Shown piece after piece: positions 3,884 through 53,760 of a stretch of DNA of 64,000 nucleotides. Under the pieces are notes generated by a model. It was not told the origin of the DNA. It saw only the letters and a list, made by a program, of their open reading frames with translations, and did no database searches. The position numbers were made by a program, and so were the translations under genes. This DNA is from Octopus vulgaris (lineage: Eukaryota), in NCBI GenBank assembly GCA_951406725.2, contig OX597821.1, positions 18,662,001 to 18,726,000 on the forward strand. Direction: 5' to 3'. The stretch's first letter is position 1. Each line of letters opens with the position of its first letter.

Positions 3884-6800
3884 ATGCTCAGAATAGGCAG
3901 TATAAATGTACGTGGCTTGGGGTCGCCTTGCAAACAAGGCTACCTGTTAACTGACATCAAGTCACTAAATCTGAATATCATAGCCGTCAGTGAGACCAGA
4001 CTCCACAGCTCGCGGGTACTCCAGCACAGTTTCGGTACACATTTCAACATTTATTTTTCTCCGTGTCTACCGAGAATGGGCGGAGGTGGCACCGCGGTGC
4101 TTCTCCGGAAGAGTCTGGATCTCAAAGTAAGAGCAATTTTCCTAGACCCGGAGGGTAGTCTGGTCGTTTTGGATGTCGATGTCAATTAGTGTGCTTTTCG
4201 ACTGATAACAGTTTATGCTCCGTCCTTAACAGGCCGACCAAATTTCTTTCGACGTCTAGAGTCTTTCATGGGAACGTCTCGTCCTTTACTTTTAGTGGGG
4301 GATTGGAATGCCACCCTGAACACGCATCTAGACTACGTGTGCAGAGATAGCAATAGAAGGGGATGCAAATGCCTGAAAGACCTGCTCAGACGTTTCCAAC
4401 TGTCTGACAGGTACCGACTGGACCACCCGAATGTGCCAATGTGGACATGGAGTAACCGCATCGGGTCGTCCAGATCATACTTAGATAGAGTATTCTGTAG
4501 GACAATAGATAAAAATAGTGTAGGTTGTCCACAATTTCATATAGTCAGTTACACAGATCACAAGTTTGTGACTTGTACACTTGACTTAGATAAGACACAT
4601 AGGCAGGGTCCTGGTTACTGGAAACTGAACGCGTCTTTTACAGCACGACAGGTTTACAGGGACCGGATCAGCACATTAGTTAAGAGAGCTTTGACGGGTA
4701 CTATCATCAACAACAGATGGTGGTATGCCCTAAAAAAAGCAATTAAAGCAGAATCAGTCAGATACAGTAAAGCCCTAGCATTAGACCGAAATAGAATAGA
4801 GGGAGAATTAGTTAAGGTTTTAGAAGAGGCACTTAGAACTGGCATCGCGTCCAACGTGCTGGCGGCGAGATTGGCCCTCGACCAACACCTCAACGTCAAA
4901 CACGAGGGATGCGTTGTCAGAGCTAGGATGCGTGCTCTGAGGAACGAAGGAGTTGGAGCCGAACAAGAGGCCCGAGTGGTGGGGACGCAACGAGGCAACA
5001 GAGCCACCATCAAGTCTCTTATAGATGAACAGGGGCGCGAATTGCTCGAGCCTAAAAGGATGTGTGGGGCTTTTCAACAACACTTCACCCAACTGTTTGG
5101 GACAAGTGGTGGGTCAGAACGCAGAGTGGACTTTAGTGCCTACCTGCATGCCTTGCCACAACTCTCAGCAAGAGAGGTGGAGTCTTGTGAAAGGCCTATC
5201 ATAGCTGCGGACGTACAGGATGCGATGGGGGGCTGAGCGAGAGACAAGTCACCAGGCTTGGGTGGTCAGCCCTACGAACTTTATTGTCATATGCCAGACT
5301 TGTTTGGAGGCGTCTTGGCAGCTGTCTACTGCAACTGGCAGCAAAACGGGAGTATTCCTGCTTTTGTAAAGCGAGGAGCAGTGGCACTGATTAAGAAAGA
5401 CCCAAACAAGGGGGACGTCATAGATAATTTCAGGCCCATCACTCTGCTCAACGCAGATTTGAAAATTTTGGCCAAGGTGTTAGCCGAGAGGTTGGCGCTT
5501 GTCATCAAGAAACTAATCGACAAGGCGCAAACATGCGCCGTGCCGGGTAAAAGTATTCATGACCACCTCCATCTGATGCGCTACATCATAGACAGGGTAG
5601 TTAAGAATCCTGGCATGGGTGGGGCGCTGATCAATTTGGATCAATCAAAAGCTTTCGATAGGGTAGACCATCACTACTTGGAGGCTGTCCTTAAAGCGGC
5701 TGGTTTCGGTCCAGTTTTCCGCGGTTGGATCGCTGCCTTATACAGCGGCATCCGCTCAGTAGTTCGCGTAAATGGTCATCTATCCAGACCTTTTAACATC
5801 ATGCGTTCGGTTCGTCAGGGATGCCCCCTCTCATCGCTGCTGTATGTATTGACTCTTGAGCCACTACTGCGGAAACTGGCGACGCTGAGGGGCATCCCAC
5901 GAGAGCTGGGATGCGGGAGGAGCGTGTCTGCATACACGGATGACGTCACCGTCATAGTGTCGAGCTACCAGCACATCGAGCTGGTTGGCGAGATACTAAA
6001 AGAATACGAAGCGGTAACGGGAGCAAAAATTAACCGGGAAAAGTCAGTGGGCTTGCGGCTCGGCACCTGGAGAAGCAGGCCCATGGCGTCCAACAGCGTC
6101 TCCATCGTGGGACGCTGGATGGACGGACCGGTTAAATTGCTCGGGGTCTTGTTCGGTCCGGACCTCCAAATGGAGAAGAACTGGGGCGAGATAACGACTA
6201 GGGTGGCTACTCTCACCCAGAAATGGGCTGAGAGAAAGCTATCCCTAAAAGGTCGGGCGGAGGTGGCGAACGCGTACATCGCATCCGTCATCGAGTATCG
6301 TCTGACCGTCGTGCCTTGTCCCGACCCTACCATCACCAAACTGGAACGTATTCTCTTCCGCTTCCTGTGGAAGGAAAACGTTCCGATGGTTAGGCGATCC
6401 ATTTGCTGTCAACATCCGCTAAATGGAGGGCTGGGCATGCCGTGGTTGATGATGCGCAGACATACGCTGAGGCTGCGACATCTCCGGCGCTTCATAGACG
6501 ACGGTGAACAGGTGTGGTCGCCTTTTGTGCGGCGCGCTTTCCTGCAGCTCGTCTCCTTGGACGAACTACAGTCATGGATCAAGCAGAGACCGAGGCTAGG
6601 CGAATGGCACCGCGAGTGTCGCGTTGCTCTCAAGCAACTCTGCCGTCCTGGGTCGAACTTGTGCGACTCCATCACAACAAAGGCATTCTATAGAGGATTA
6701 GTGGAGGGGAGGTGCGACGACGAACTCGGGCAGAGTCTGGGCGTCGACGAGGAACACCTGACCCGCCTGTTCAGGACAACTTTCGGGCCGGGACCTATGA

Positions 6801-7317
6801 ACAATCACCAAAGATCCCTGGCCTGGCAGTGCTATCGAGAAGCATTGCCTGTTCGGGATAAGCTCTACAGACACGGTTCCAGACACACTGGACCGACTTG
6901 CCCGAGATGCGGTCAGAGCGACGAAACCGTTCTGCACGCACTCGTGCAATGTCCAACCATTTCAGACCTATGGGCTTATGCCGAACGGCTGCTGTCACGT
7001 GTGGGACGAATCCGCCTATCGGCCGAGTCTATCGTGAGAATTGCTCCGCCCCCTTCCCTCAACCGGGAAGATAAGGCAGTTTTCATCGTACTGGTGGCCA
7101 TGGTGAAAGAATGTGTGTGGTGGACCCGAGCGAAAGGATTAGAGACAAACACTTACCTCTCTGGCCAATCGCTCATAAACTTTTTCAAGTACCACTTGAA
7201 AAGGAAGGTGAGAATGGAGAGGGAAGTTTTGTCTCGCGAAAGATTAAAAAAAGATGGGTGAATGTTGCAAAGATGGTGCGTGCGAGTGACGAAACCATTT
7301 TGAGCATGACCCTGTAA
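3884..7317 (+). pseudogene. Tx1 ORF2 (APE endonuclease + reverse transcriptase + zinc finger), two in-frame stops and a terminal frameshift
   Basis: ORFs 3884, 4268 and 5258 share one frame. APE motifs: INVRGL, SET, GDWN, SYLDR, TDH. RT motifs: NFRPITLLNADLKI, LDQSKAFDRV, VRQGCPLS, YTDD. Zinc finger: CPRC..ETVLHALVQC. Stops at 4187 and 5234; frameshift in the A-run near 7246. Confidence 0.93.
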
Positions 7318-7593
7318 ATCGTAAAAAAGAAAGAAAGAGAGCATTTTGCTCTCATGTGGTTATTTCCTCCCTGACTGAGGTTCCCGTGGTCTTTTCTGTA
7401 GGCTTTTCTTCCCACGGATGAACCCAATCTTGTTTTATCAATGTTTTTATCAATGTTTCTGTGATACACGATTTCTTTCCTTTTTTTCCCTCTCGATCCC
7501 TTTTGATCGCACTCTTACATTTATTTCCTTTTTTCCACCCTCGAAAAGAAAAGCTCTACATTTGTATTTGTCCCTTCTGTATTCAGCCCTCTG

Positions 7594-18448: not shown

Positions 18449-18486
<38 letters not shown>

Positions 18487-18573
18487 TATTAGAGACAAAA
18501 CCACTATTTTGCAAAACAAACAAGGAAAGACTTAATCAATATATAAAATTTTAATAAATAGTCAAAAAAACCG

Positions 18574-18616
18574 CCACTACAATTGTTTCTTGTCTTGATC
18601 GACAATCTTCAGGTGG
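18574..18616 (-). ncRNA. Minimal type I hammerhead ribozyme motif (left arm copy)
   Basis: Reverse complement of the motif at 21086-21128. Confidence 0.75.
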
Positions 18617-21085
18617 ACTTCCAATCTAAAATATCAATATTTTAAAATATAAAAATAATAATTTTAAAATAATTAAAGTATTAATAGCAATCCCTTTAAC
18701 CTATACATTCACACACAAATACACACACGTAAACCACACACCCATAACAAATACAAACACCCACCCCACTCACACACACCCACATGTACATATAAGCCTC
18801 AACATATGCACCAAACAAAATTACGTTACCAAGGAACTTAACATATGTATAAAAAGTATTTATTGTCTGTTATAATAAAGTACACACACCCATAACAAAT
18901 ATAAGTGCCCACTTCATTCGCGCGTACCTGGAATTGCATGTGAACCTCAACATATACACCAATCGGCCACTCCCGCCCCATACGGACAAATAAACATACA
19001 TCCCCCAAAATGGGCGTAATCCCACTCACACCAATCATATGTATACAATTATACACACTAGAATAATACATAACTAACCCAAATATACAGAACATATTAA
19101 AAATCACCAACAAACCACCATCACAAATGAAACCCACACCCATACAATGACAAAACTCCCCCCTCCATACCCAATTTACACCCACATAGCAATCCCAATA
19201 TATTTATCCATACATGGACGCACGTGCGTGAAGCACATGCACATAATAAATACGTACAACCCCCCAATACACACTTATATACATACGTATCAAGCTCGAC
19301 ATCCACAGCAATACGCTTACACCCACTCACACCCAGATGGGTGAATTGCACAACCAGGGAACGCACACACACACGTGTGCGTATTTTGATTGTGCAACTC
19401 GCCCATATGCATGTATGCGGGCGCGATTACATTGTTGCACATATCGAGCCCAACTAGCATGCATATGTACATGTGAGGGGGTACACGCAAATGCCGTGCG
19501 CGTGTACCCCCTGCATTTATACCCGTGCGTGAATATACACATGGAGACTACCACACAGGTACAAATGTGTATAGTAATGGGAGCCCCATCACTACACTCA
19601 ATGTATACTCTCACCCATCCGCACGGATGTGAAAGCGAATCTCCGGTGTATATGTTGAGGCTTATATGTAGCGCTGTGGAGGCGAACGTCGTTGAAATTG
19701 TGAATGAATGGGTGGAGTTGGGAATTGTAACCGGGTGGTGGGCTAGCGTTGCTTGGAATTGGGAATGGAATAGTGTAGTAGTAAGGCAGGCATCGAGAAT
19801 AGATTTGGATTACTGCAAGTTGTTTGTTAGAGCTGCTAAGATGCGCTAAAGCTCATAAATGTATATAATAATTTATTATGGTAGTTTTATTAAAGAATCC
19901 ATTCATAATAAATTTTTTTTTAAGTAGTGTTGGTTTGCCACGTGGATATAGTTTTTAGTTCCATTTATTCTATTTCTCCATTCATAATTTTAAATGACGT
20001 TTACTTTCCATGGCGCGTATTCTTTTTTTTACATAAGTTATATTTCTATGGTAACGTAATTTTGGTTTGATTTTTTTAACGGCTAAGAATTTAATTTCAC
20101 TTCATAATTTGAAACTGACTTGTAAGTATGTATTTTATTTCTCCTTATGTCATATTGTTATTTTTGATATTCTGGTTAATTACGATGTATTTAACGTTGT
20201 TTTTTATTGGAGTGTTTATGTATATGAGATTGTGTGTGAGTTTTTAGTTGTATAATTTATTTATCTGTATGAGTGTGGGTGTGTAAATATTGTTGTATAT
20301 ATCGAGTTTAGTGAGTATGTATATGCGTATATGTGAGGGAGTATATGTATCTGTTGTGTGTGTGTGTTATGCGTGTGTGTGTGCTTGTGTGTGAATGTGT
20401 ATATGGGTTTGTTATATAGGTTTGGGATGTATGTGTTAATTTGTCTGTGTGGGAGGGAGTGGGTTTTTGGTGTATATTGAGGTTTATAAGTTAGTATCGG
20501 TATGTGTGAGTGAGGTGGGTATTTGTATAAGTCGTGGGTCTGTGGTTTACGTGTGTGTATTTGTGTGTGAATGTTTAGGTTAGGGGGATTGCTATATAGG
20601 TTTGTTATAGAGATTAGCAAAGGGAGATTTTATCGTTATATGTTTTTAAGAGTTTTGGTTTATCATGGTTTTTTTAGGGAATTCGTGGTAATTTGTCTAT
20701 TTTCGATGTTTGTTGTTTTATTACATTGTTTCATTCATAATTTTTGAGTCGTGTTCGTTTTGCCACGTGAATATTATTTTTAATTCCATTTATTCCATTT
20801 CTCCATTCATAATTTTGAAAGATGTTAGTTTCCAGAGCGGTAATACTTTTTATACATATGTTAAGTTCCTTGGTAACGTAATTTTGTTTGGTGCATATGT
20901 TGAGGCTTATATGTACATGTGGGTGTGTGTGAGAGGGCTGGGTGTTTGTATTTGTTATGGGTGTGTGGTTTACGTGTGTGTATTTGTGTGTGAATGTATA
21001 GGTTAAAGGGATTGCTATTAATACTTTAATTATTTTAAAATTATTATTTTTATATTTTAAAATATTGATATTTTAGATTGGAAGT

Positions 21086-21128
21086 CCACCTGAAGATTGT
21101 CGATCAAGACAAGAAACAATTGTAGTGG
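21086..21128 (+). ncRNA. Minimal type I hammerhead ribozyme motif
   Basis: CCAC-CTGAAGA-TTGTC(gatcaa)GACAA-GAAAC-AATT-GTA-GTGG: intact core, 5-bp stem II, palindromic stem III, GUA site, 4-bp stem I. Confidence 0.78.
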
Positions 21129-21303
21129 CGGTTTTTTTGACTATTTATTAAAATTTTATGTATTGATTAAGTCTTTCCTTGTTTGTTTTGCAAAATAGTG
21201 GTTTTGTCTCTAATAATATTTTATAATATTTTACTATAAAATTGGATTTAATCCTAAATCTGATTTTTTCCCTGTAAATTTGGATTTATTCCCTAATATT
21301 TAT

Positions 21304-21349
<46 letters not shown>

Positions 21350-22579: not shown

Positions 22580-24470
22580 AAATTCAAACAAAATGGAGAA
22601 TACATACACAGAATGATCAATTTATTGTCATTGTCCAGTCAAATTAATGAGTTCACTGATATTGCCGACGCTGCGTTTTGATTGATTGCTGTCATTCATA
22701 TTTACACATTTATATGGTGCATTATGAAGTTGAAACAAGCAAAAAACCTCCTATTTTCACACCTTAATGGATGGAGAGTAAATCCCGATTGAATTGTAGC
22801 ATGTACGTCTTGGATCCTGTTCTAAAAATAACTAAAGGTTGATTTTTGTTTACCTTACTGGACAAGGGATAGGCATAGTTCAGAAGAACTAGGTTATGTT
22901 ACTATTCGACTCTTTTGGTAGTGCTGATTAACAATTTACAAACCTTCCACTATTTTTTATCCTATTCAGAATGTCCATAAAATATGGACAACTCTTAATG
23001 AGGATAACTCTGAAGGTATAGAATACAAGTACAACAATTATTTGTGAGGTAACAGAGAGCGCTTCTAAGAATAAAACTTGAGTTTGCGCCATAGGAAAGC
23101 GATGTACATTGGATTCTTTTTGTAGGAAAAAAGGGATTATATGTTTGTAAGATGGTATCTAAAGGACAGGATTACTACTAACTTTGCCTTTCATCCTTTC
23201 GGGGTCGATAAATAAAGTACCAGTTTCGCACTGGGGGCGATATAATCGACTCAATCCCTTCGTCTGTCCTTGTTTGTCCCCACTATGTTTAGCCCCTTGT
23301 GAGCAGTAAAGAAATATATATAGGTTCTACGGAAAATTATATAAAAGAAAGATAGGTAATTATGAAAACAGTTTTAGGGATAGAAAAAAGAGATTAGCAC
23401 CAGTCTAAGTAAACTAATTCGGTCGATTAAAGATAATAATAACGTCTATATAATTAAGTGGGAAATAATTAGCCGAGCAAAATCTTAAAGCTTTGGGAAC
23501 AAAAGATGTGAACTTTGTATCGAGGAAATTTATCAGGAAATTTACATGAAAACACAAATTGATCAACAACAAGAGGGAAAGAGGACGCTGTTGTGTTCTT
23601 AAAGTTAAATGTACATTTAATAAATTTAAATCGATATAATTAAAATAAATACTGTGTAAATAATACCTAAGAATAGTTTATAAAGTTAAAAATGCACTCA
23701 ATAAATTTAAATAGATAGTGTTAAAAATAAACAGGGTGTAAATGATACCTATGAATCGTGAATCTATACAATAAATTAAATAGATAAATATATATGTATG
23801 AACCCAAACCATCAACAAATATATTTGATTACATAATTGTATTTACTAGTAACTAATATAATTAAAAAAAAAGTAAATAAGAGTGTTGATATAAAATAAA
23901 TAAAAGTAACTGTTAGGTACACACCTAGATTTATTATATCAGTAATAAGGGCGCAGAAGAATATGTTATGGACATGGTGAATTGTATGGAAAGATTTAGC
24001 CTGTAAGGCTAAATCGTTAATCAGTTTGGCCAAATGGATGGAATAAGGACCCAGTGGAATGTGTTATGGGCATACTGAATAGGATGAAAGGTTGTGGCAG
24101 GCTTGTAAACAGTTAATCGGCATTACGAAAAGAGTGGAGTAGTAACATGACCTAGTTCTTCTGAACTATGATTATCTCTTGTCCAGTAAGGTAAAAACAT
24201 CAACATTTAGCTATTTTCAGAACAGAATCCAAGACGCACATGTTACAATTCAATCGGAAGAAACTCTCCATCTATTAGGATGTGATAACTATCAGTCAAT
24301 TATGCCCCGAGGAGGCTTTTTGCTTTTTTCAACTTCCTAATGCACCTTATAAATGTGTAAATATGAATGGCAGCAGTCAGCTGAAACGCAGTGTAGGCAA
24401 TATGAATTTGACTGGACAATGATAATAAATTGATTATTCTGAGTATGAATTCTCCGTTATCTTTGAATTA
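22580..24470. mobile_element. Old Penelope-like element with diverged ~400-bp inverted arms
   Basis: 22580-22985 is a diverged reverse complement of 24060-24470 (e.g. ATAGTTCAGAAGAACTAGGT vs ACCTAGTTCTTCTGAACTAT). Ends at (TA)n. A SINE is nested at 23181. Confidence 0.6.
23181..23316 (+). mobile_element. SINE family B, 5'-truncated
   Basis: CTTTGCCTTTCATCCTTTCGGGGTCGATAAA core plus tail CCTTGTTTGTCCCC..AGCCCCTTGTG..TAAAGAAATA. Confidence 0.8.
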
Positions 24471-32982: not shown

Positions 32983-33107
32983 CATTAACAATCAAGGAAC
33001 GGCCATAATAGGCCATTCACCCACTAGAAATAACAGCCAAAAGCTTTAACCGCAAAATAACGTCAATTCCGTAAACCAGGAGAAAATTGAAAAACATTTA
33101 CCCTGTA

Positions 33108-33214
33108 ATTTCTTAGACGATGCACCGTTTCATCTTCTGTTTAATGGAAAACTAACCTGATTAAATTAAATCAAGCCAATCTACCATAGGCCCTTAGATT
33201 CATCAGTAAGAAAT
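33108..33214 (-). ncRNA. Type I hammerhead ribozyme, copy 1
   Basis: Minus strand: ATTTCTTA-CTGATGA-ATCT[long extension]AGAT-GAAAC-GGTGCATC-GTC-TAAGAAAT. 8-bp stem I, intact core, stem III with TGCA loop, GUC site. Confidence 0.88.
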
Positions 33215-33599
33215 AGCCAAACCGGAACAGATATTTTTCACGAGGCATTCTCATTGCTACCTCGTCAATATCTGACCTAAAATTTTCAAATCGTCGCACT
33301 CGCGCCAAATTTATCGGCAGCAAATAAATATAAGCCGCCGATTCCATTACGGAATTAACCAGAAAATTCATAATTAATCAATATAGGGTGGCAAAAAAAA
33401 TTTTGTAGAATTCTTTTGCCTCCAGCGGCCTAGTGGGAAAAAATTAAATAGTCATAAACCATTTTTAAGTTCAACATTAACAATCAAGGAACGGCCATAA
33501 TAGGCCATTCACCCACTAGAAATAACAGCCAAAAGCTTTAACCGCAAAATAACGTCAATTCCGTAAACCAGGAGAAAATTGAAAAACATTTACCCTGTA

Positions 33600-33706
33600 A
33601 TTTCTTAGACGATGCACCGTTTCATCTTCTGTTTAATGGAAAACTAACCTGATTAAATTAAATCAAGCCAATCTACCATAGGCCCTTAGATTCATCAGTA
33701 AGAAAT
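33600..33706 (-). ncRNA. Type I hammerhead ribozyme, copy 2
   Basis: Same sequence as copy 1, 492 bp away. Confidence 0.88.
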
Positions 33707-33929
33707 AGCCAAACCGGAACAGATTTTTTCACGAGGCATTCTCATTGCTACCTCGTCAATATCTGACCTAAAATTTTCAAATCGTCGCACTCGCGCCAAA
33801 TTTATCGGCCGTTCCTTGATTGTTAATGTTGAACTTAAAAATGGTTTATGACTATTTAATTTTTTCCCACTAGGCCGCTGGAGGCAAAAGAATTCTACAA
33901 AATTTTTTTTTGCCACCCTATATTGATTA

Positions 33930-33999
<70 letters not shown>

Positions 34000-38310: not shown

Positions 38311-39333
38311 TACTAAATGGAGTTGAACGCAGATGTTATTAAAATTCTTTTACTTTCGACATACAATAAACGGTGTAAAATGCAATCTTCTCATCAGGAA
38401 AGAAAGAGAGCCTATCTCAACAACTAGACACTATAACAATTACGATGACTGCATACTATATTCCTTTGGAATAAAACCAATGTTGTCTTCGAAACATGTA
38501 TCGAAAGTAAAAGAATTTTAATAACATCTGCGTTCAGATGTTATTCTACTATAGATGTTCTTCTACTATAGCTCGAGGCTATAGTAGAAGACACTTGCCC
38601 AAGTTGCAACGCAGTTGGAATGAACCCGGAACCATGTGGGTGGTAAGCATGCTACTTACCACACAGTCACTCCTGCACCTATACGATCGTGAGCCGAATT
38701 ATCCTGACCACTACGCCACGCGCCTTCACAGTCGAGGAAGTGACAAGTGTATAACAAAAGCAATAACTTTCAGAGATGTTGTCTCCTAAGAGTTGACATT
38801 CAATACCACCTTTGTGGACTTTTAAACTGTCTCAAGAATAAAATGGCGCGAACCAAATACAAATTCAGAAGTTATATAAGAAAAGGAGACTCCGAAAGAA
38901 TGAAAGGTAAAATTGATTTAGGAGAGGGCTAAACTCAAGGAGTGGAGGGTTTGAATGATTACTGTGTTTCTGTCACTCGACCGTGTTAAGCATATGTATA
39001 TTATAGCTTAGACGTAATATACTAAGTTTCACGTAGCCAAGCTAAATCCGATCAATTCGTGGCGCGGAAAATAGATAACTACTCACATGTGTGTATCAGC
39101 GAGAAAAGGCGTGAAATCGACTCAAGTGCAAAGGGTAAAAACAACAGGAACAACAAGAACACGACAACTACGACAACGACGACAACGACGACGACGACCA
39201 CCACCACCACCACCAACACAACTACAACAGCTTTTGTCTTACTGAAACACTTATATATGGCGGGTAGAGGCATGACATAGTTAGTTTTACTTCGTGTTCG
39301 GTAAACGTAAAATCAGGCTGCCGGTTCATTAAA

Positions 39334-39423
<90 letters not shown>

Positions 39424-39425
<2 letters not shown>

Positions 39426-42400
39426 GGGAACGTCTCGTCCTTTACTCTTAGTGGGGGATTGGAATGCTACCTTGGACACGCATGTAGACTACGTGGGTAG
39501 AAATAGGAATAGACGGGGATGCAAATGCCTCAGAGACCTGCTCAGACGCTTTCAACTGTCTGACAGGTTCCGACTAGACTACCCGAATGCGCCAACGTGG
39601 ACATGGAGCAACCGCATTGGGTCGTCGAGATCGTATCTAGATAGGATACTGTGTAGGACAGATAGCATAGGATGTCCACAATTCCACATAGTCAGCTACA
39701 CGGATCACAAACTTGTGACATGTACGCTAAACTTAGGTAAGACACTTAGGCAGGGTCCCGGATACTGGAAACTAAACGCGTCTTTCCCGTCGAGACAGGT
39801 TTTCAGAGACCGGATTAGCACATTAGTAAAGAGGGCTTTGACGGGAGCCATCATCAACAACAAATGGTGGTTTGCCCTCAAGGGAGCAGTAAAAGCAGAA
39901 GCGATTAGGTACAGCAAAGCACTAGCCATAGATAGAAATAGAGTAGAGAGTGAGCTAGTTAAGAAGCTAGAAGAGGCAATTAGAAGCGGCATCGCATCCG
40001 ACGTTTTGGCGGCGAGGTTGGCCCTCGACCAACACTTCAACGCCAAACACGAAGGATGTGCTGTCAGGGCTAGGATGCGTGCTCTAAGGAACGAAGGTTT
40101 TGGAGTCGCGAGAGAGACCCGGGTGGCAGAGGTGCAACAGGGCAACAAAGCCACCATTCGGTCCCTGGTAGATGAACAGGGGCGCGAATTGCTCGAGCCA
40201 AGTAAAATGTGTGAGGCCTTTCAACAGCATTTTGCCTGACTGTTCGGGACGAGTGGAGGGCAAGAACGTAGGGTGGACTTCAGTGCCTACCTACATAGCC
40301 TACCACGACTCTCGACAAGAGAGGCAGGGTGCTGCGAAGGTGCCATCACGGCGGCGGAAGTGCAGGACGCGATGGCAGAATGCTCGAGGGACACATCACC
40401 GGGTTTGGATGGTCTACCCTACGAGCTTTACAATTGTATGCCAGACTTGTTTGGAGATCTCTTGGCGGCGGTGTACTGCAACTGGCAGCAAAACGGGAGC
40501 ATTCCTGGTTTTGTGAGCCGAGGAGCCGTAACACTGCTGAAGAAAGATCTAAACAAGGGAAATGTAATAGATAACTTTAGGCCCATCACTCTGCTTAATG
40601 CAGACTTGAAAATTTTGGCCAAGGTGCTAGCCAAGAGGTTGGCGCTTGTCATCGAGAAACTGGTCGACAAGGCGCAAACATGCGCCGTGCCGGGCCGGAC
40701 CATCCATGACAACCTCCACCTGATGCGCTACATCATAGACAGGGTAGTTAACGAACCTGGCATGGGTGGGGCGCTGATCAATTTGGATCAATCGAAAGCT
40801 TTCGATAGGGTGGACCATCGATACTTGGAGGCAGTCCTCAGAGCGGCTGGCTTCGGTCCCGTCTTCCGCGGCTGGATAACCGCTTTGTACAGAGGCATCC
40901 GTTCGGTAATTCGCGTAAATGGACATCTATCGAGACCCTTCGACATCGCACGTTCGGTCCGTCAGGGATGCCCCCTCTCGTCGCTTCTATACGTATTGAC
41001 TCTCGAGCCATTATTGCGGAAGCTGGCAACTTTGAGGGGCATCCCGCGAGAATTGGGATGCGGGACGAGCGTGTCTGCATACGTGGACGACGTCACCGTC
41101 ATAGTGTCTAGCCACGAGCACATCGAGCAGGTCGGCGAGACACTGAAAAACTACGAAGCGGTGACAGGAGCGAAAATCAACCGGGAAAAGTCAGTGGGCT
41201 TGCGACTAGGCACCTGGAGAAGCAAGCCCATGCCGTCCACCAGCGCCTCCGTCGTGGGACGCTGGACCGACGGCTCGGTTGAGTTGCTCGGGTTCTGGTT
41301 TGGTCCGGACCTCCAAGTGGAGAAGAACTGGAACGAGATAACGAGTAGGGCGGTCACTCTCGCCCGGCAATGGGCCGAGAGGAAACTGTCCCTAAAAGGT
41401 CGGGCGGAGGTGGCGAACGCGTACATCGCGTCCGTCATCTACTACCGCCTGACCGTGGTGCCTTGTCCCGACCCTACCATCACCAAACTAGAACGCATTC
41501 TCTTTCGCTTCTTGTGGAAAGGATGCGTCCCGATGGTCAGGCGATCCATTTGCTGTCAACACCCGTTAAAAGGAGGACTGGGCATGCCGTGGTTGATGAT
41601 GCGCAGACACGCGCTGAGACTGCGACATCTCAGGCTCTTCGTAGACGACGGTGAACAGGTGTGGTCGCCGTTTGTGAGGCACGCTTTCCTGCAGCTCGTC
41701 TCCATGACCGAACTGCAGTCGTGGATCAAAAAGAGGCTGAGGAAGGGCGATTGGCACCGCGAGTGTCGCGTTGCTCTCAAGCAACTCTGCCGTCCTGGGT
41801 CGACCTTGAGTGACTTCATTACAATCAAAGCATTCTATAGGGGATTAGTGGAGTGGAGGTACGACGACGAGCTCGGGGCGAACCTGGACGTCGACGAGGA
41901 GTACCTGACCCGCCTGTTCGGGACGACTTTCGGGCCAGGGCCCATGGACAACTTCCAGAGATCCCTGGCCTGGCAGTGCTACCGAGAAGCGCTACCCGTT
42001 CGGGATAAGCTCTACAGACACGGCTCGAGAAACACGGGGCCGACCTGCCCGAGATGCGGTCAGAGCGACGAAACCGTTCTGCACGCACTCGTGCAGTGTC
42101 CAACAATTTTCGACCTGTGGGCTTATGTCGAACAACTGCTGTCACGTGTGGGACGAGTCGGTTTATCAGCTGAGTCTATCGTCAATATTGTCACGCCTCC
42201 TTCCTTCAGACGGGAAGGAAGAGCTATTTTCATCATCCTTGTGGCTATGGCGAAAGAATGTATCTGGTGGACGCGTCTGAAAGGATTGGAGACAAACACT
42301 TTCCTCTCTGGTCAATCTCTCATCAACTTCTTCAAGTACCACTTGAAAAGGAAAGTGAGAGTAGAGAGGCAAGTTTTGTCTAGCGAATGTTTAAAAAAAA

Positions 42401-42465
42401 GATGGGTGAATGTAGCAAGGATGGCACGTATGAGTGACGAAGCCACCTTGAGCATAATCCTATGA
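39424..42465 (+). pseudogene. Tx1 ORF2 (partial APE, RT, zinc finger) with a single stop
   Basis: ORFs 39424..40239 and 40273..42465 are in one frame, separated by TGA at 40237. Motifs SPGLDG, LDQSKAFDRV, QGCPLS, YVDD, CPRC..H...C. Confidence 0.93.
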
Positions 42466-42921
42466 ATCCAGAAATTGAAAACAGAGGGTTACCCACTTGC
42501 AAACAAATGTGGTAACATATAACAATATTGACCAAGGTTACCATGGTCTTTTTCGTAGGCTTTTCTTCCCACGGATAAACCTTACTTGCTTTCCCCTTTA
42601 CACCATATATCATAACACTGTGATACACGATCCCTATTAATCGTTTATTTTTCCTCTTCCCCTTTTTCCCCTTTTTTCTTCTTTTTTCATTTCTCTTTTC
42701 TTTTGTTCCTTTTCCTTTCCCTCTTTTTTTATTTTTATTTTTTTATTTTTTATTTTATTTTTTTTTGTTCTTTTCTTCCCTTTTACGATACCTCTTGATC
42801 GAAAACCTACGCCACCCCTTTTTTTGTTTCTTTTGTTTTTTGTTTTTTTCATCCCCCAAAAGAAAAGCTCTACCTTGTAACTTGTCCCATCTGTGTGCAG
42901 CCCTGTGTGGCCAATAAAGAA

Positions 42922-50503: not shown

Positions 50504-50770
50504 GCACACACACACATACACATGCACGCACGCACAGACACACACACACAAGCAAACAAACACACACACAAACACAACTTTTATCTTTTACTTGTTACAG
50601 TCATTAGACTGCGGCCATGTCTCCTAATATCCGATGAAATGGACGAATCCTACGATCCTACCAAACTGTAAGTCTTGTGGAACTAAATCAAACTGATGAT
50701 GCACAAACATTATATACATATATGTATGTGTGTGTGTGTGTATGTGTATATATATACAAATATATATATA

Positions 50771-51090
50771 TATAATGGTTGTATACTGTCAATCTAACAA
50801 GAACGTGACAGTAGGGGGTACACCACCGTTATATAGCCCTAGGAGGCATCGAACGCCTCCTGACAGCTTCGACACATTTTATCCTGTGTCCTTATATACA
50901 CATACGAAGGGGAGACAAACACCCCCAACTGCCGATGAAGGACAATGATCCTGAAACACGGTGTCCCTAGATGCAGTTCCGGTGTACCCCCTACTGTCAC
51001 GTTCTTGTTAGATTGACAGTATACAACCATTATATCGCTCCACCACCGTACACCTCTCTACGAGAGATTTAGAAACTCAATATTTCTTAT
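50771..51090 (+). mobile_element. Short PLE-type insertion: 54-bp inverted repeat, hammerhead-like motif and tail
   Basis: 50771-50824 is the perfect reverse complement of 50981-51034, followed by a ~55-bp tail and (TA)n. A hammerhead-like motif lies at 50927-50978. Confidence 0.7.
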
Positions 51091-51101
51091 ATATATATAT
51101 A

Positions 51102-51771
51102 TAATTAATCAATATAGGGTAGCAAAAAATTCAGCAGAAATTATTTGCCACCAGCGGTCTAGTGGGAAAAAGGAAATAGTCAAAAACTATTAATAAATAC
51201 AACAGCAAAATTAAGGAACGGCCATAATAGGCCGTTCAACCCACTAGAAATAGCAGCTAAGGCTTCAACAGCAAAAAAGTATTAATTCCGTAAACAAGGA
51301 GAAAATTAAAAAAACATTTACCTGTTATACTTTATACAATGCATCGTTTCATCTATTTTTTAATGGTAAATCAGCCTGATTAAATTAAATCAAACTAATC
51401 CTCCATAGGCCAACAGATTCAGCAGTAAAGTAAGCCAGACGGGAGAGATATTTCCACGAGGCAGCACCACTACTGTCTCGGCAATATCTGACCTAAAATT
51501 TTCAAATCATCGTACTCGCGCCAAATTTATCGGCAGCAAATATAAGCTGCCGATTCCATTTCGGAATTAAACAGAAAATTTATAATTAATCAATATAGGG
51601 TAGCAAAAAATTCAGCAGAAATTATTTGCCACCAGCGGTCTAGTGGGAAAAAGGAAATGTTTTTTAAATTTTCTCCTTGTTTACGGAATTAATACTTTTT
51701 TGCGGTTGAAGCCTTAGCTGCTATTTCTAGTGGGTTGAACGGCCTATTATGGCCGTTCCTTAATTTTGCTG

Positions 51772-51773
<2 letters not shown>
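51102..51773 (-). mobile_element. Second, diverged locus of the hammerhead tandem unit (481-bp period) with terminal inversion
   Basis: TAATTAATCAATATAGGG recurs at 51102 and 51583. Colinear with the 32983 unit. 51658-51773 is inverted. Flanked by (TA)n. Confidence 0.85.
51328..51432 (-). ncRNA. Type I hammerhead ribozyme homologue (core variant CTGCTGA)
   Basis: Minus strand: TACTTTA-CTGCTGA-ATCT[..]AGAT-GAAAC-GATGCATT-GTA-TAAAGTA. Confidence 0.75.
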
Positions 51774-51830
<57 letters not shown>

Positions 51831-51926: not shown

Positions 51927-53760
51927 CCCTAGGGCAAAATCGCGGCAAATGCCAGTAGCAATCCAAAAACCTTCTTTGCCCATGTCCAGCGGAATTCCCG
52001 CTTGAACAACCAGATTGCAACGTTGGTGGACTCAACAGGCGTATCGATTGAGGACCCTTATCAACAGAGCCAATTATTTGCCGAGGCTTTTTCAACTATT
52101 TTCAAACAAGATGATGGTCGTGAACCCCTCAATTTGATAGATCGGTACCTCCAATGCTTCGATTGGTCATCACGCGGGACGAAGTCAAACGTGTTATTCA
52201 AGGCCTCAATGTCAACAAGGGTCACGGCCCTGTCGGCCTACACCCACGGGTTATCAAAGCGTTGGCTCCGGTCATCTGCGAGCCCTTAACACGTCTATTC
52301 AATATGTCATTGGCGACGGGTGTTATACCTGCAGACTGGAGAACAGCGATAATCTGCCCAATTTTCAAGAAAGGGAGCCGGGAAGACCCGCTTAACTACC
52401 GACCGGTTTCCCTTACATCAATAATCAGCAAGATGTTCGAAACCATCCTTAAGAAAAGTATGATGCTCCACCTCCTAAACACAGCCTCTATCTCTGATTC
52501 CCAACACGGCTTCGTGCCGAAGAGATCATGCTTGACCAACTTACTAGTAATGGAAGAATTGGTGACGCGCATCCTCGATGATAGTGATGCTGTTGACATC
52601 GTTTTATTGGACTTTGCCAAAGCTTTTGACTCGGTAAACCACCGCCTATTACTTGCCAAGCTTCAAGCATATAGTTTCCATCCGGATATTGTACGATGGG
52701 TTGGTGCCTTCCTCTCAGATCGCTCCTTCCAAGTCCAAGTTAATGGTTCGCGGTCCGACGTCTCCAGTGCGAGCAGTGGCGTGCCTCAAGGTTCAGTGCT
52801 TGGGCCCTTGTTGTTCTTAGTCTTCATAAATGACTTGCCAGACGACCTCACGCAACACACCCTTCTATTTGCCGACGATATCAAACTGGTCGCTCCTCGC
52901 GGTGATATAGAGGATCTTCGTCGATGCCTCCACCAAATTTGGAAGTGGTCTAACGATTGGGACCTGTGTCTGAACGTGTCAAAGTGCTGTCATCTGCCTG
53001 TTGGCTCTCCTCCTGCAACTCAACTTGATTTCGAGCCGGGTCGTCTGCTGCTGGAGAGGACCGATCAGGTAAAGGACCTGGGTATCTTGGTGGATTCCTC
53101 ATTTTCGCCTTCGGCCCAGTGTGTCCATGCTGCAAACAAAGCACGCGGAATTCTGTTCTTGATTCGACGGTCATTCGGAATGCTCACAGCAGCCATATTC
53201 CTACAACTCTATGTCACGCTGGTGAGACCCATATTGGAGTATGGGATTCAAGCCTCTTCTCCTTATCTCCTCAAAGACATACAGCATCTCGAAAGAGTCC
53301 AGAAGCTGGCTACCCGCATGGTTCATGGTCTCAAAAATTTGTCCTACGAAGAAAGGCTGAGGACGCTCGACCTTTATTCTCTTGAAAAACGCCGCCGCCG
53401 TGGTGATTTCATTCTCGTCCACAACATCATAAGCGGAAAGTGTAACCTCTCGAAAGAGCTGTTCTTCACTCCTGCTCCAGAGCGTCGGCTGCGGGGTCAT
53501 TCCGAAAAGCTCTACCTGCGACGATTTCATCTCAATCGAAGGAGAGGAGCTTTCTCCGTCCGGGTTGCGGATCCGTGGAACAAGCTGCCAGACGAGATGG
53601 TGAAGATGCCGACGACCGCTTTGTTCAAAGCCTCCCTGGACCTCAAGTGGCCTGAACTCTTTACATGAACACCACCCTGTACTTAACTCCATGTCCCCCT
53701 ACATGGCCTTGCTATTTGCTTTTGAGCCAAATTAACTAACTAACTAACTAACTAACTAAC
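51927..53760 (+). mobile_element. 5'-truncated CR1-type LINE with (TAAC)n tail
   Basis: Linker NPKTFFAHV, RT ORF, short 3' UTR and (TAAC)7 tail. AACTACGT is repeated at 51919-51926 and 53758-53765. Confidence 0.9.
52154..53668 (+). CDS. CR1-type reverse transcriptase (open, N-terminally truncated)
   Basis: NYRPVSLTS, QHGF..RSCLTNL, LDFAKAFDSV, SGVPQGSVLGPLLFLVFINDL, FADD, KDLG, LERVQK, YEERL..L.LYSLEKRR.RGD. Confidence 0.9.
   Translation: MLRLVITRDEVKRVIQGLNVNKGHGPVGLHPRVIKALAPVICEPLTRLFNMSLATGVIPADWRTAIICPIFKKGSREDPLNYRPVSLTSIISKMFETILKKSMMLHLLNTASISDSQHGFVPKRSCLTNLLVMEELVTRILDDSDAVDIVLLDFAKAFDSVNHRLLLAKLQAYSFHPDIVRWVGAFLSDRSFQVQVNGSRSDVSSASSGVPQGSVLGPLLFLVFINDLPDDLTQHTLLFADDIKLVAPRGDIEDLRRCLHQIWKWSNDWDLCLNVSKCCHLPVGSPPATQLDFEPGRLLLERTDQVKDLGILVDSSFSPSAQCVHAANKARGILFLIRRSFGMLTAAIFLQLYVTLVRPILEYGIQASSPYLLKDIQHLERVQKLATRMVHGLKNLSYEERLRTLDLYSLEKRRRRGDFILVHNIISGKCNLSKELFFTPAPERRLRGHSEKLYLRRFHLNRRRGAFSVRVADPWNKLPDEMVKMPTTALFKASLDLKWPELFT

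Follow-up and report, generated by a model that had tools for sequence, protein, structure and literature searches.

A long-stem-II type I hammerhead motif in a mutated non-coding repeat of Octopus vulgaris, probably a non-autonomous Penelope-like retroelement

Several described systems are close to the locus analyzed here. Animal non-LTR retrozymes are non-coding head-to-tail units with one type I hammerhead per unit, a short loop 2, a low GC content, strong self-pairing, a high copy number and several subfamilies (PMC7229834; bioRxiv 10.64898/2026.07.22.740005). Insertions of Penelope-like elements (PLEs) consist of a partial tandem, an inverted 5'-truncated copy and a one-sided tail, and are biased towards (TA)n (PMC8557442, PMC3846280). 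In one PLE, PAc, two internal starts of reverse transcription after nicking of AT-rich DNA define the tail, and hammerhead mutants showed no loss of in vitro insertion (PMC11167929). Hammerheads have been reported for molluscs (PMC7229834) and in the assembly of a squid (PMC6962438), and covariation within Penelope-associated hammerhead families has been published (PMC4209133). Covarying hammerheads in Penelope-derived repeats and decayed single copies are already in print, and what is gained here is one family with an atypical arm.

The window analyzed is a stretch of 64,000 nt of the O. vulgaris assembly GCA_951406725.2 (contig OX597821.1, positions 18,662,001 to 18,726,000), and all coordinates below are counted from its first letter. 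It is AT-rich, with 123 tandem-repeat rows (microsatellites) and with LINE-type RT fragments. The locus of interest, locus B, begins with a full non-coding unit of 481 nt on the minus strand (51102-51582, subfamily B), whose "long" 3' terminus lies in (TA)n. On the sense strand, this unit is preceded by a 5'-truncated head-to-tail repeat of its final 76 nt (51583-51658, minus strand; 76 of 76 positions identical at period 481) and by an inverted arm of 118 nt (51655-51772, plus strand), which is a copy of 51319-51202 and ends at the "short" 3' terminus. The direct and inverted arms overlap by 4 nt (51655-51658), and the locus is enclosed by a left-end (51088-51103, from the repeat scan of the window) and a right-end (51773-51827) (TA)n tract. 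The letters quoted for 51102-51773 in a first-pass annotation of this DNA were all present, on the minus strand; the 76-nt partial repeat and the 118-nt inverted arm had been omitted from it. The sister locus, locus A (32983-33931, minus strand, subfamily A), is also flanked by (TA)n and has a period of 492 nt, with 1.68 tandem units (33809-32983) and an inverted arm at about 33807-33931. The 481-bp unit had been described as clearly diverged from the 492-bp unit, and both the periods and the divergence were confirmed: loci A and B were 81-82% identical (357 matches, 74 substitutions and 11 gap columns). The tandem copies inside locus A differed by one indel over 336 columns. Within the window, a 21-nt probe matched the three unit copies only.

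The GC content of the units is 35-37%, with 35% in subfamily B. No ORF was found in the 481- or the 492-nt unit, the longest stop-free stretches being 53 and 68 aa, respectively. Self-pairing of the unit RNA was predicted to be high (fold z -7.4 for B and -5.5 for A, with 0 of 100 shuffles as stable), and the minus strand folded 31-41 kcal/mol better than the plus strand. A putative retained GT-AG intron of 163 nt (51159-51321, minus strand) was recognized by consensus match only, through a donor, a branch-like motif, a pyrimidine tract and an AG. The GT-AG interval is kept in locus A at 164 nt and lies 3' of the ribozyme in both subfamilies; judged from these signals, it may be a retained intron of the kind known for PLEs.

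Further copies were sought in public sequencing data. Part of the stretch was present in 20 of 24 listed runs (9 studies, 4 organism codes), none of which is registered as an RNA run. Four public runs (X1, X2, X5 and X6) were aligned to 51180-51582 at 80% likeness, giving 4407 contigs; contig variants were read from 32 of 4433 pieces and from 24 of 177 loose ends, the loose ends were reverse-complemented by hand, and sums of contig depth were not taken as copy numbers. The head-to-tail junction had the same position in A, in B and in the loose ends of three contigs each in X2 and X6. This fixed junction, together with the lack of an ORF, indicates a defined non-autonomous monomer and not a random truncation. 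Exact-pattern scans for more copies gave no hits in viral contigs, metagenomes or prokaryote genomes. Judged by the highest depth bins, sharing across the contigs was most uniform not in the hammerhead but in a hairpin region upstream of it (51474-51543), which is a candidate promoter or protein-binding site.

The layout of PLE insertions, i.e. a partial tandem, an inverted 5'-truncated copy, a one-sided tail and an AT-rich target, was found at both loci. Each has a more-than-unit arm (1.16 units in B, 1.68 units in A) joined to the inverted arm over 3-4 nt of common sequence, and on both sides of each locus the insertion ends are sense-strand 3' ends. Two 3' termini recur, 133 and 233-237 nt downstream of the predicted ribozyme cleavage site. 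The long and short termini are swapped between the long arm and the inverted arm in A compared with B, which excludes fixed terminal inverted repeats; a MITE or TIR DNA transposon was rejected, since the two loci carry different parts of the unit as their inverted arms. At the short terminus, a C is found at 32983 and at 51772 where the internal unit copy has a T (2 of 2), and this terminal C was possibly added or mispaired at priming.

Compared with PLE insertions and with PAc (PMC8557442, PMC3846280, PMC11167929), the octopus loci share the partial tandem, the inverted truncated copy, the one-sided extension, the (TA)n target and two putative RT starts downstream of the hammerhead. They differ in the tail, which measures about 100 nt between the 3' termini at both loci instead of 30-40 nt, and in having no RT or GIY-YIG ORF. 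With animal non-LTR retrozymes (PMC7229834; preprint, bioRxiv 10.64898/2026.07.22.740005) they share all the features listed above except the short loop 2, in whose place stem II carries an 18-bp hairpin. The unit size of 481-492 nt exceeds the 150-450 nt given in PMC7229834 and falls inside the 51-972 nt of the preprint. The inverted arm with its tail resembles PLE insertions and differs from those retrozymes, and of the two hammerheads by which the preprint defines an "active" copy, locus A has both and locus B one. By analogy of architecture, on which membership rests, the element would work like an animal non-LTR retrozyme or like a pLTR-only PLE derivative.

The hammerhead of locus B lies entirely on the minus strand. 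The 5' strand of stem I (51426-51432) pairs with 51334-51328, and is followed by the catalytic core C3-A9 (51419-51425), which carries an A6C substitution at 51422. Stem II, an internal loop and an 18-bp extension hairpin occupy 51351-51418, with the 44-nt hairpin at 51406-51363. G12-A14 and a 12-nt near-palindromic stem III span 51336-51350 (stem III itself 51347-51336), and H17 with the 3' strand of stem I spans 51328-51335. H17 is the A at 51335, and cleavage is predicted between 51335 and 51334. The letters of the motif had been given correctly in the first-pass annotation, without mention that 68 nt separate A9 from G12 and that these include the hairpin prolonging stem II. Helix I is open (type I), and the helices around the core measure 7/7/4 bp in B and 8/4/4 bp in A, the outer three stem II pairs being present in B only. 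Both helices have internal loops, between which a loop 1 - loop 2 tertiary contact might form, and both window copies carry A-U in place of the usual G-C at 10.1-11.1. In locus A both hammerheads are intact, the cores lying at 33698 and 33206 with predicted cleavage after 33608 and 33116, and both copies match the type I consensus C3U4G5A6N7G8A9, G12A13A14, A15.1-U16.1 and H17; in locus B, 10 of 11 positions match, A6C being the exception. The hammerheads of PLE pseudo-LTRs are minimal (PMC4209133). Those of the octopus loci differ in a helix I of 7-8 bp, a helix III formed by a 12-nt palindrome, the 68 nt between A9 and G12, the lack of a bulged base after A9, the A-U pair and the absence of an ORF.

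A descriptor scan of both strands of the window gave nine matches. Three belong to this family (33698, 33206 and 51425), two to an unrelated element (18612 and 21090), and four are weak, with one mismatch. Since ten block-shuffled windows together gave no exact-core match and no strong match (one match with one mismatch was obtained), the motif exceeds chance. A second hammerhead, proposed at 51536/33320, was rejected because of one core mismatch and a stem III of just 2 bp. The Rfam hammerhead was absent among the matches at each locus (E up to 10; 5 and 3 matches) and, over the whole window, among the best 150 of 174 matches. This is likely due to the long stem II, which serves as a warning that Rfam and short-loop descriptors overlook such ribozymes. 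A thin literature search (hammerhead with octopus or cephalopod) returned no description of a long stem II of this kind in the available text of its hits, whose supplementary alignments may already include long-stem-II hammerheads or the present family.

Stem III was predicted to be unstable as an isolated hairpin (-0.2 kcal/mol in A, 0.0 in B) and stable as a self-duplex (-17.5 in A, -14.5 in B). Relative to the ensemble, the active monomer fold was less favourable by 4.2 kcal/mol in A and by 2.7 kcal/mol in B, and the minimum-energy fold of the full B unit was without stem I. According to these predictions, stem III would be stable only as an intermolecular duplex, which would suit the double-hammerhead mode described for PLE ribozymes (PMC4209133).

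Taken together, we consider with good confidence that locus B represents one mutated member of an abundant non-coding repeat of 480-490 nt with at least two subfamilies. In this reading, the repeat is likely a Penelope-like retroelement of the non-autonomous, animal non-LTR retrozyme type, and its long-stem-II type I hammerhead motif is likely kept by selection in propagating lineages. As a mechanism, we propose that an autonomous Penelope-like element would supply an RT/GIY-YIG protein that binds a tandem or circular transcript of the unit. This protein would nick (TA)n and begin reverse transcription internally, at one site 133 nt and another about 235 nt past the ribozyme site. The arm longer than one unit would stem from one of these starts and the inverted arm from the other, with microhomology of 3-4 nt where they join. 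In a tandem transcript, two hammerheads would excise unit-length RNA by pairing through their palindromic stems III, and A6C would have arisen in the present copy during or after insertion, leaving it weak in Mg2+. Regarding a source of the protein inside the window, the domain scan covered nine of the 32 ORFs with 150 aa or more; none contained GIY-YIG and three contained RVT_1. An RT fragment at 52124-53665 and two endonuclease-RT LINEs were rejected as partners, as they show no link to the element. The two LINE copies, at 4190-7424 and 39268-42581, are 83% identical and contain endonuclease, RVT_1 and zf-RVT domains, each copy being split by a stop.

Because the long arms cross the cleavage site, their template must have been either a tandem transcript left uncleaved or a circle closed again by ligation. 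It is quite possible that the unit arose by deletion from a Penelope-like element and is propagated from tandem transcripts that stay uncleaved, with no circular RNA intermediate, in which case the hammerhead would be conserved through inheritance from autonomous parents or as a fold for protein binding. The cDNA arms do cross the site intact, once in B and twice in A, and the putative retained intron follows the ribozyme. Likewise, the PAc mutants mentioned above insert normally in vitro and no RNA ends were found at the site (PMC11167929), and only one of nine Xenopus retrozyme dimers cleaved in vitro (bioRxiv 2026.07.22.740005). Copying without circles is harder to reconcile with a fixed head-to-tail junction common to both subfamilies and with the strong self-pairing of the whole unit, which is like that of retrozyme circles. 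The close similarity of the tandem copies in locus A would fit copying from one circle, and a recent origin as well.

More specific is the proposal of a family of intron-bearing, Penelope-mobilized RNA circles in which the conserved 18-bp stem II domain hides the hammerhead from Rfam and from standard descriptors and cleavage occurs only in dimers, via the palindromic stem III; in this complete form we regard it as rather unlikely. If it were true, long-armed hammerheads would be an abundant and uncounted class of ribozymes in animal genomes, and private versus subfamily variation would provide a natural mutational scan of circle versus uncleaved template in PLE replication. A loose end in X6, behind 51322 (7 contigs, median 13 letters), enters a simple repeat 3-4 nt upstream of the cleavage site, which is a weak hint of a copy bounded at its 5' side near that site.

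Under the preferred reading of a mutated copy of a non-autonomous retroelement, the A6C substitution is a matter of this copy only. The core had been noted as CTGCTGA and as probably inactivated, with the suggestion that the family consensus be checked for the canonical A. The core letters are indeed present, and position 51422 reads A6 in 69 of 69 crossing contigs (6, 19, 28 and 16 by run), so A6C is private to this genomic copy. "Inactivated" was too strong: in two tested ribozymes A6C sharply lowered cleavage in Mg2+ and Mn2+ activity stayed, and in one ribozyme the rate at 0.3 mM Mg2+ was 3.55e-6 per min with A6C compared with 0.3 per min for the normal form (PMC7151607). By analogy, "crippled" rather than dead seems a fair word for the hammerhead of this copy. 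The Bcep176 A6C variant carries the same core substitution as 51422 (PMC7151607, PMC3088659); however, in Bcep176 it is a core variant, whereas here it is confined to one genomic copy. Its private occurrence (0 of 69 contigs) points to decay, and a maintained Mn2+-sensing or Mn2+-preferring variant was rejected. Moreover, with one hammerhead at locus B, monomer release is impossible regardless of A6C. An error of sequencing or assembly as the origin of the C at 51422, which its absence from all 69 crossing contigs could suggest, appears improbable: Logan contigs lose rare variants, no run is known from the individual of the window, the copy has other near-private letters (51270 and 51394), and two inner positions of its inverted arm do not match the unit, a sign of real decay.

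The first-pass annotation had claimed compensatory changes between the subfamilies in stem I, in stem III and in the cleavage triplet, and had argued from this covariation for selection on ribozyme structure. We compared the pairing of the two copies, using conservation tests that were picked after the motif had been seen. Pairing is kept between the subfamilies, as stated: with the structure taken from A, 10 of 110 pairs were broken versus 21.4 expected (P <= 0.0001). With the structure taken from B, 15 of 111 were broken versus 20.0 expected (P 0.067), with no pair-keeping double change. The stem I changes are true double changes, with pairing retained in both B and A, and affect three of seven pairs (three of eight in the hammerhead alignment) versus 0.08 expected. 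The corresponding P values are 0.0001 by permutation over the unit, 0.009 given 3+3 changes in the two strands, and 0.029 under a 2+2 reading, with one pair inserted and one flipped. They cluster in three adjacent pairs and are readable as two events instead of three. The unit as a whole shows no excess of double changes (3 versus 1.45 expected with the structure from A, P 0.17). In the extension helix, six one-sided changes across 18 pairs left none broken (P 0.006). A two-sequence shuffle control was not significant (61/500), as expected because the alignment has two rows only.

The other two components of the covariation claim failed. Both stem III changes are one-sided (G-C to G-U and G-U to A-U), and their alleles segregate among copies, 51338 at 39, 33, 63 and 30% and 51344 at 0, 30, 33 and 59% of depth. 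The change from GUC to GUA affects an unpaired position, and GUA is also found with an A-type stem I in an X2 loose end; GUC/GUA was thus rejected as a subfamily marker as well. The covariation claim thus holds in part: the structure is conserved, and between loci A and B covariation in the strict sense is seen in stem I only.

The contigs were also used to follow stem I in other copies. A B-type contig (X5 record 22) spans 51321-51439 with nine differences and no gap, whereas the A type over the same interval would give 26 substitutions and two gap columns. Similar B-type contigs are X5 record 23, X6 record 30 and X1 records 5 and 7, and those bridging both stem I strands show 0-9 differences, compared with 16-26 if they were of the A type. 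No variant at 8% or more was listed at 51329-51334 and 51426-51433 in the four runs, which leads us to regard the B-type stem I as a trait of its subfamily. Position 51328 varies (U-A to U-G, 0-29%). Among the loose ends, those of X1 contain a stem II starting with G-C plus a second swapped pair (one contig per strand), those of X2 and X5 a stem I 5' strand ending in G, that of X6 a 3' strand starting with C, which together would make a G-C first pair, and single contigs of X5 and X6 a stem III that is perfectly palindromic around another centre. These complementary variants of stems I, II and III sit on separate contigs and are unlinked. Position 51351 varies (7-22% of depth) with no corresponding row at its partner 51418, which counts against kept pairing. 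Among the copies, N7 is U, C or A and H17 is C or A, i.e. the variation falls on positions that hammerheads leave free. The preservation of the structure across subfamilies suggests that the hammerhead fold matters in propagating lineages. It bears on a puzzle of PLEs, one of which inserts in vitro without the ribozyme, the motif being conserved nonetheless (PMC11167929).

That pairing is instead maintained at the DNA level, by template switching between short inverted repeats or by a single-stranded hairpin of a MITE- or Helitron-like element, the likeness to a hammerhead being secondary, might draw on the hairpin-rich unit, the mostly one-sided helix changes and the possibly few events in stem I, and is nevertheless very improbable given the unpaired core letters kept at exact hammerhead spacing, the variation at N7 and H17 and the inverted arms that differ between the loci, which leave no fixed terminal repeats.

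Other elements of the window have similar features. An unrelated 2.8-kb element in (TA)n (18472-21308) has inverted arms of 389 nt that are 99% identical. One of its ends is extended by about 80 nt, and each arm contains a compact type I hammerhead that is intact, with the cores at 18612 (minus strand) and 21090 (plus strand); the element is a second Penelope-type family. Directly to the left of locus B, and sharing a (TA)n tract with it, lies a small element (50770-51087) with perfect inverted arms of 55 nt, about 50 nt of extra sequence on the right and, near 50932 on the plus strand, a degenerate motif resembling a hammerhead, with U4C and a poor stem I. The long 3' termini of three families, at 21291, 33916, 51076 and 51118, have a similar AT-rich motif of 14 nt before (TA)n. 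A pattern built post hoc from this motif matches, in the window, these termini and internal unit copies only, and the motif may be a common RT start signal. Finally, a weak hammerhead-like match at 24307 (plus strand), with a stem II region of 69 nt and one core mismatch, lies inside a 420-nt inverted pair (22581-22980 / 24064-24469) of 79% identity.
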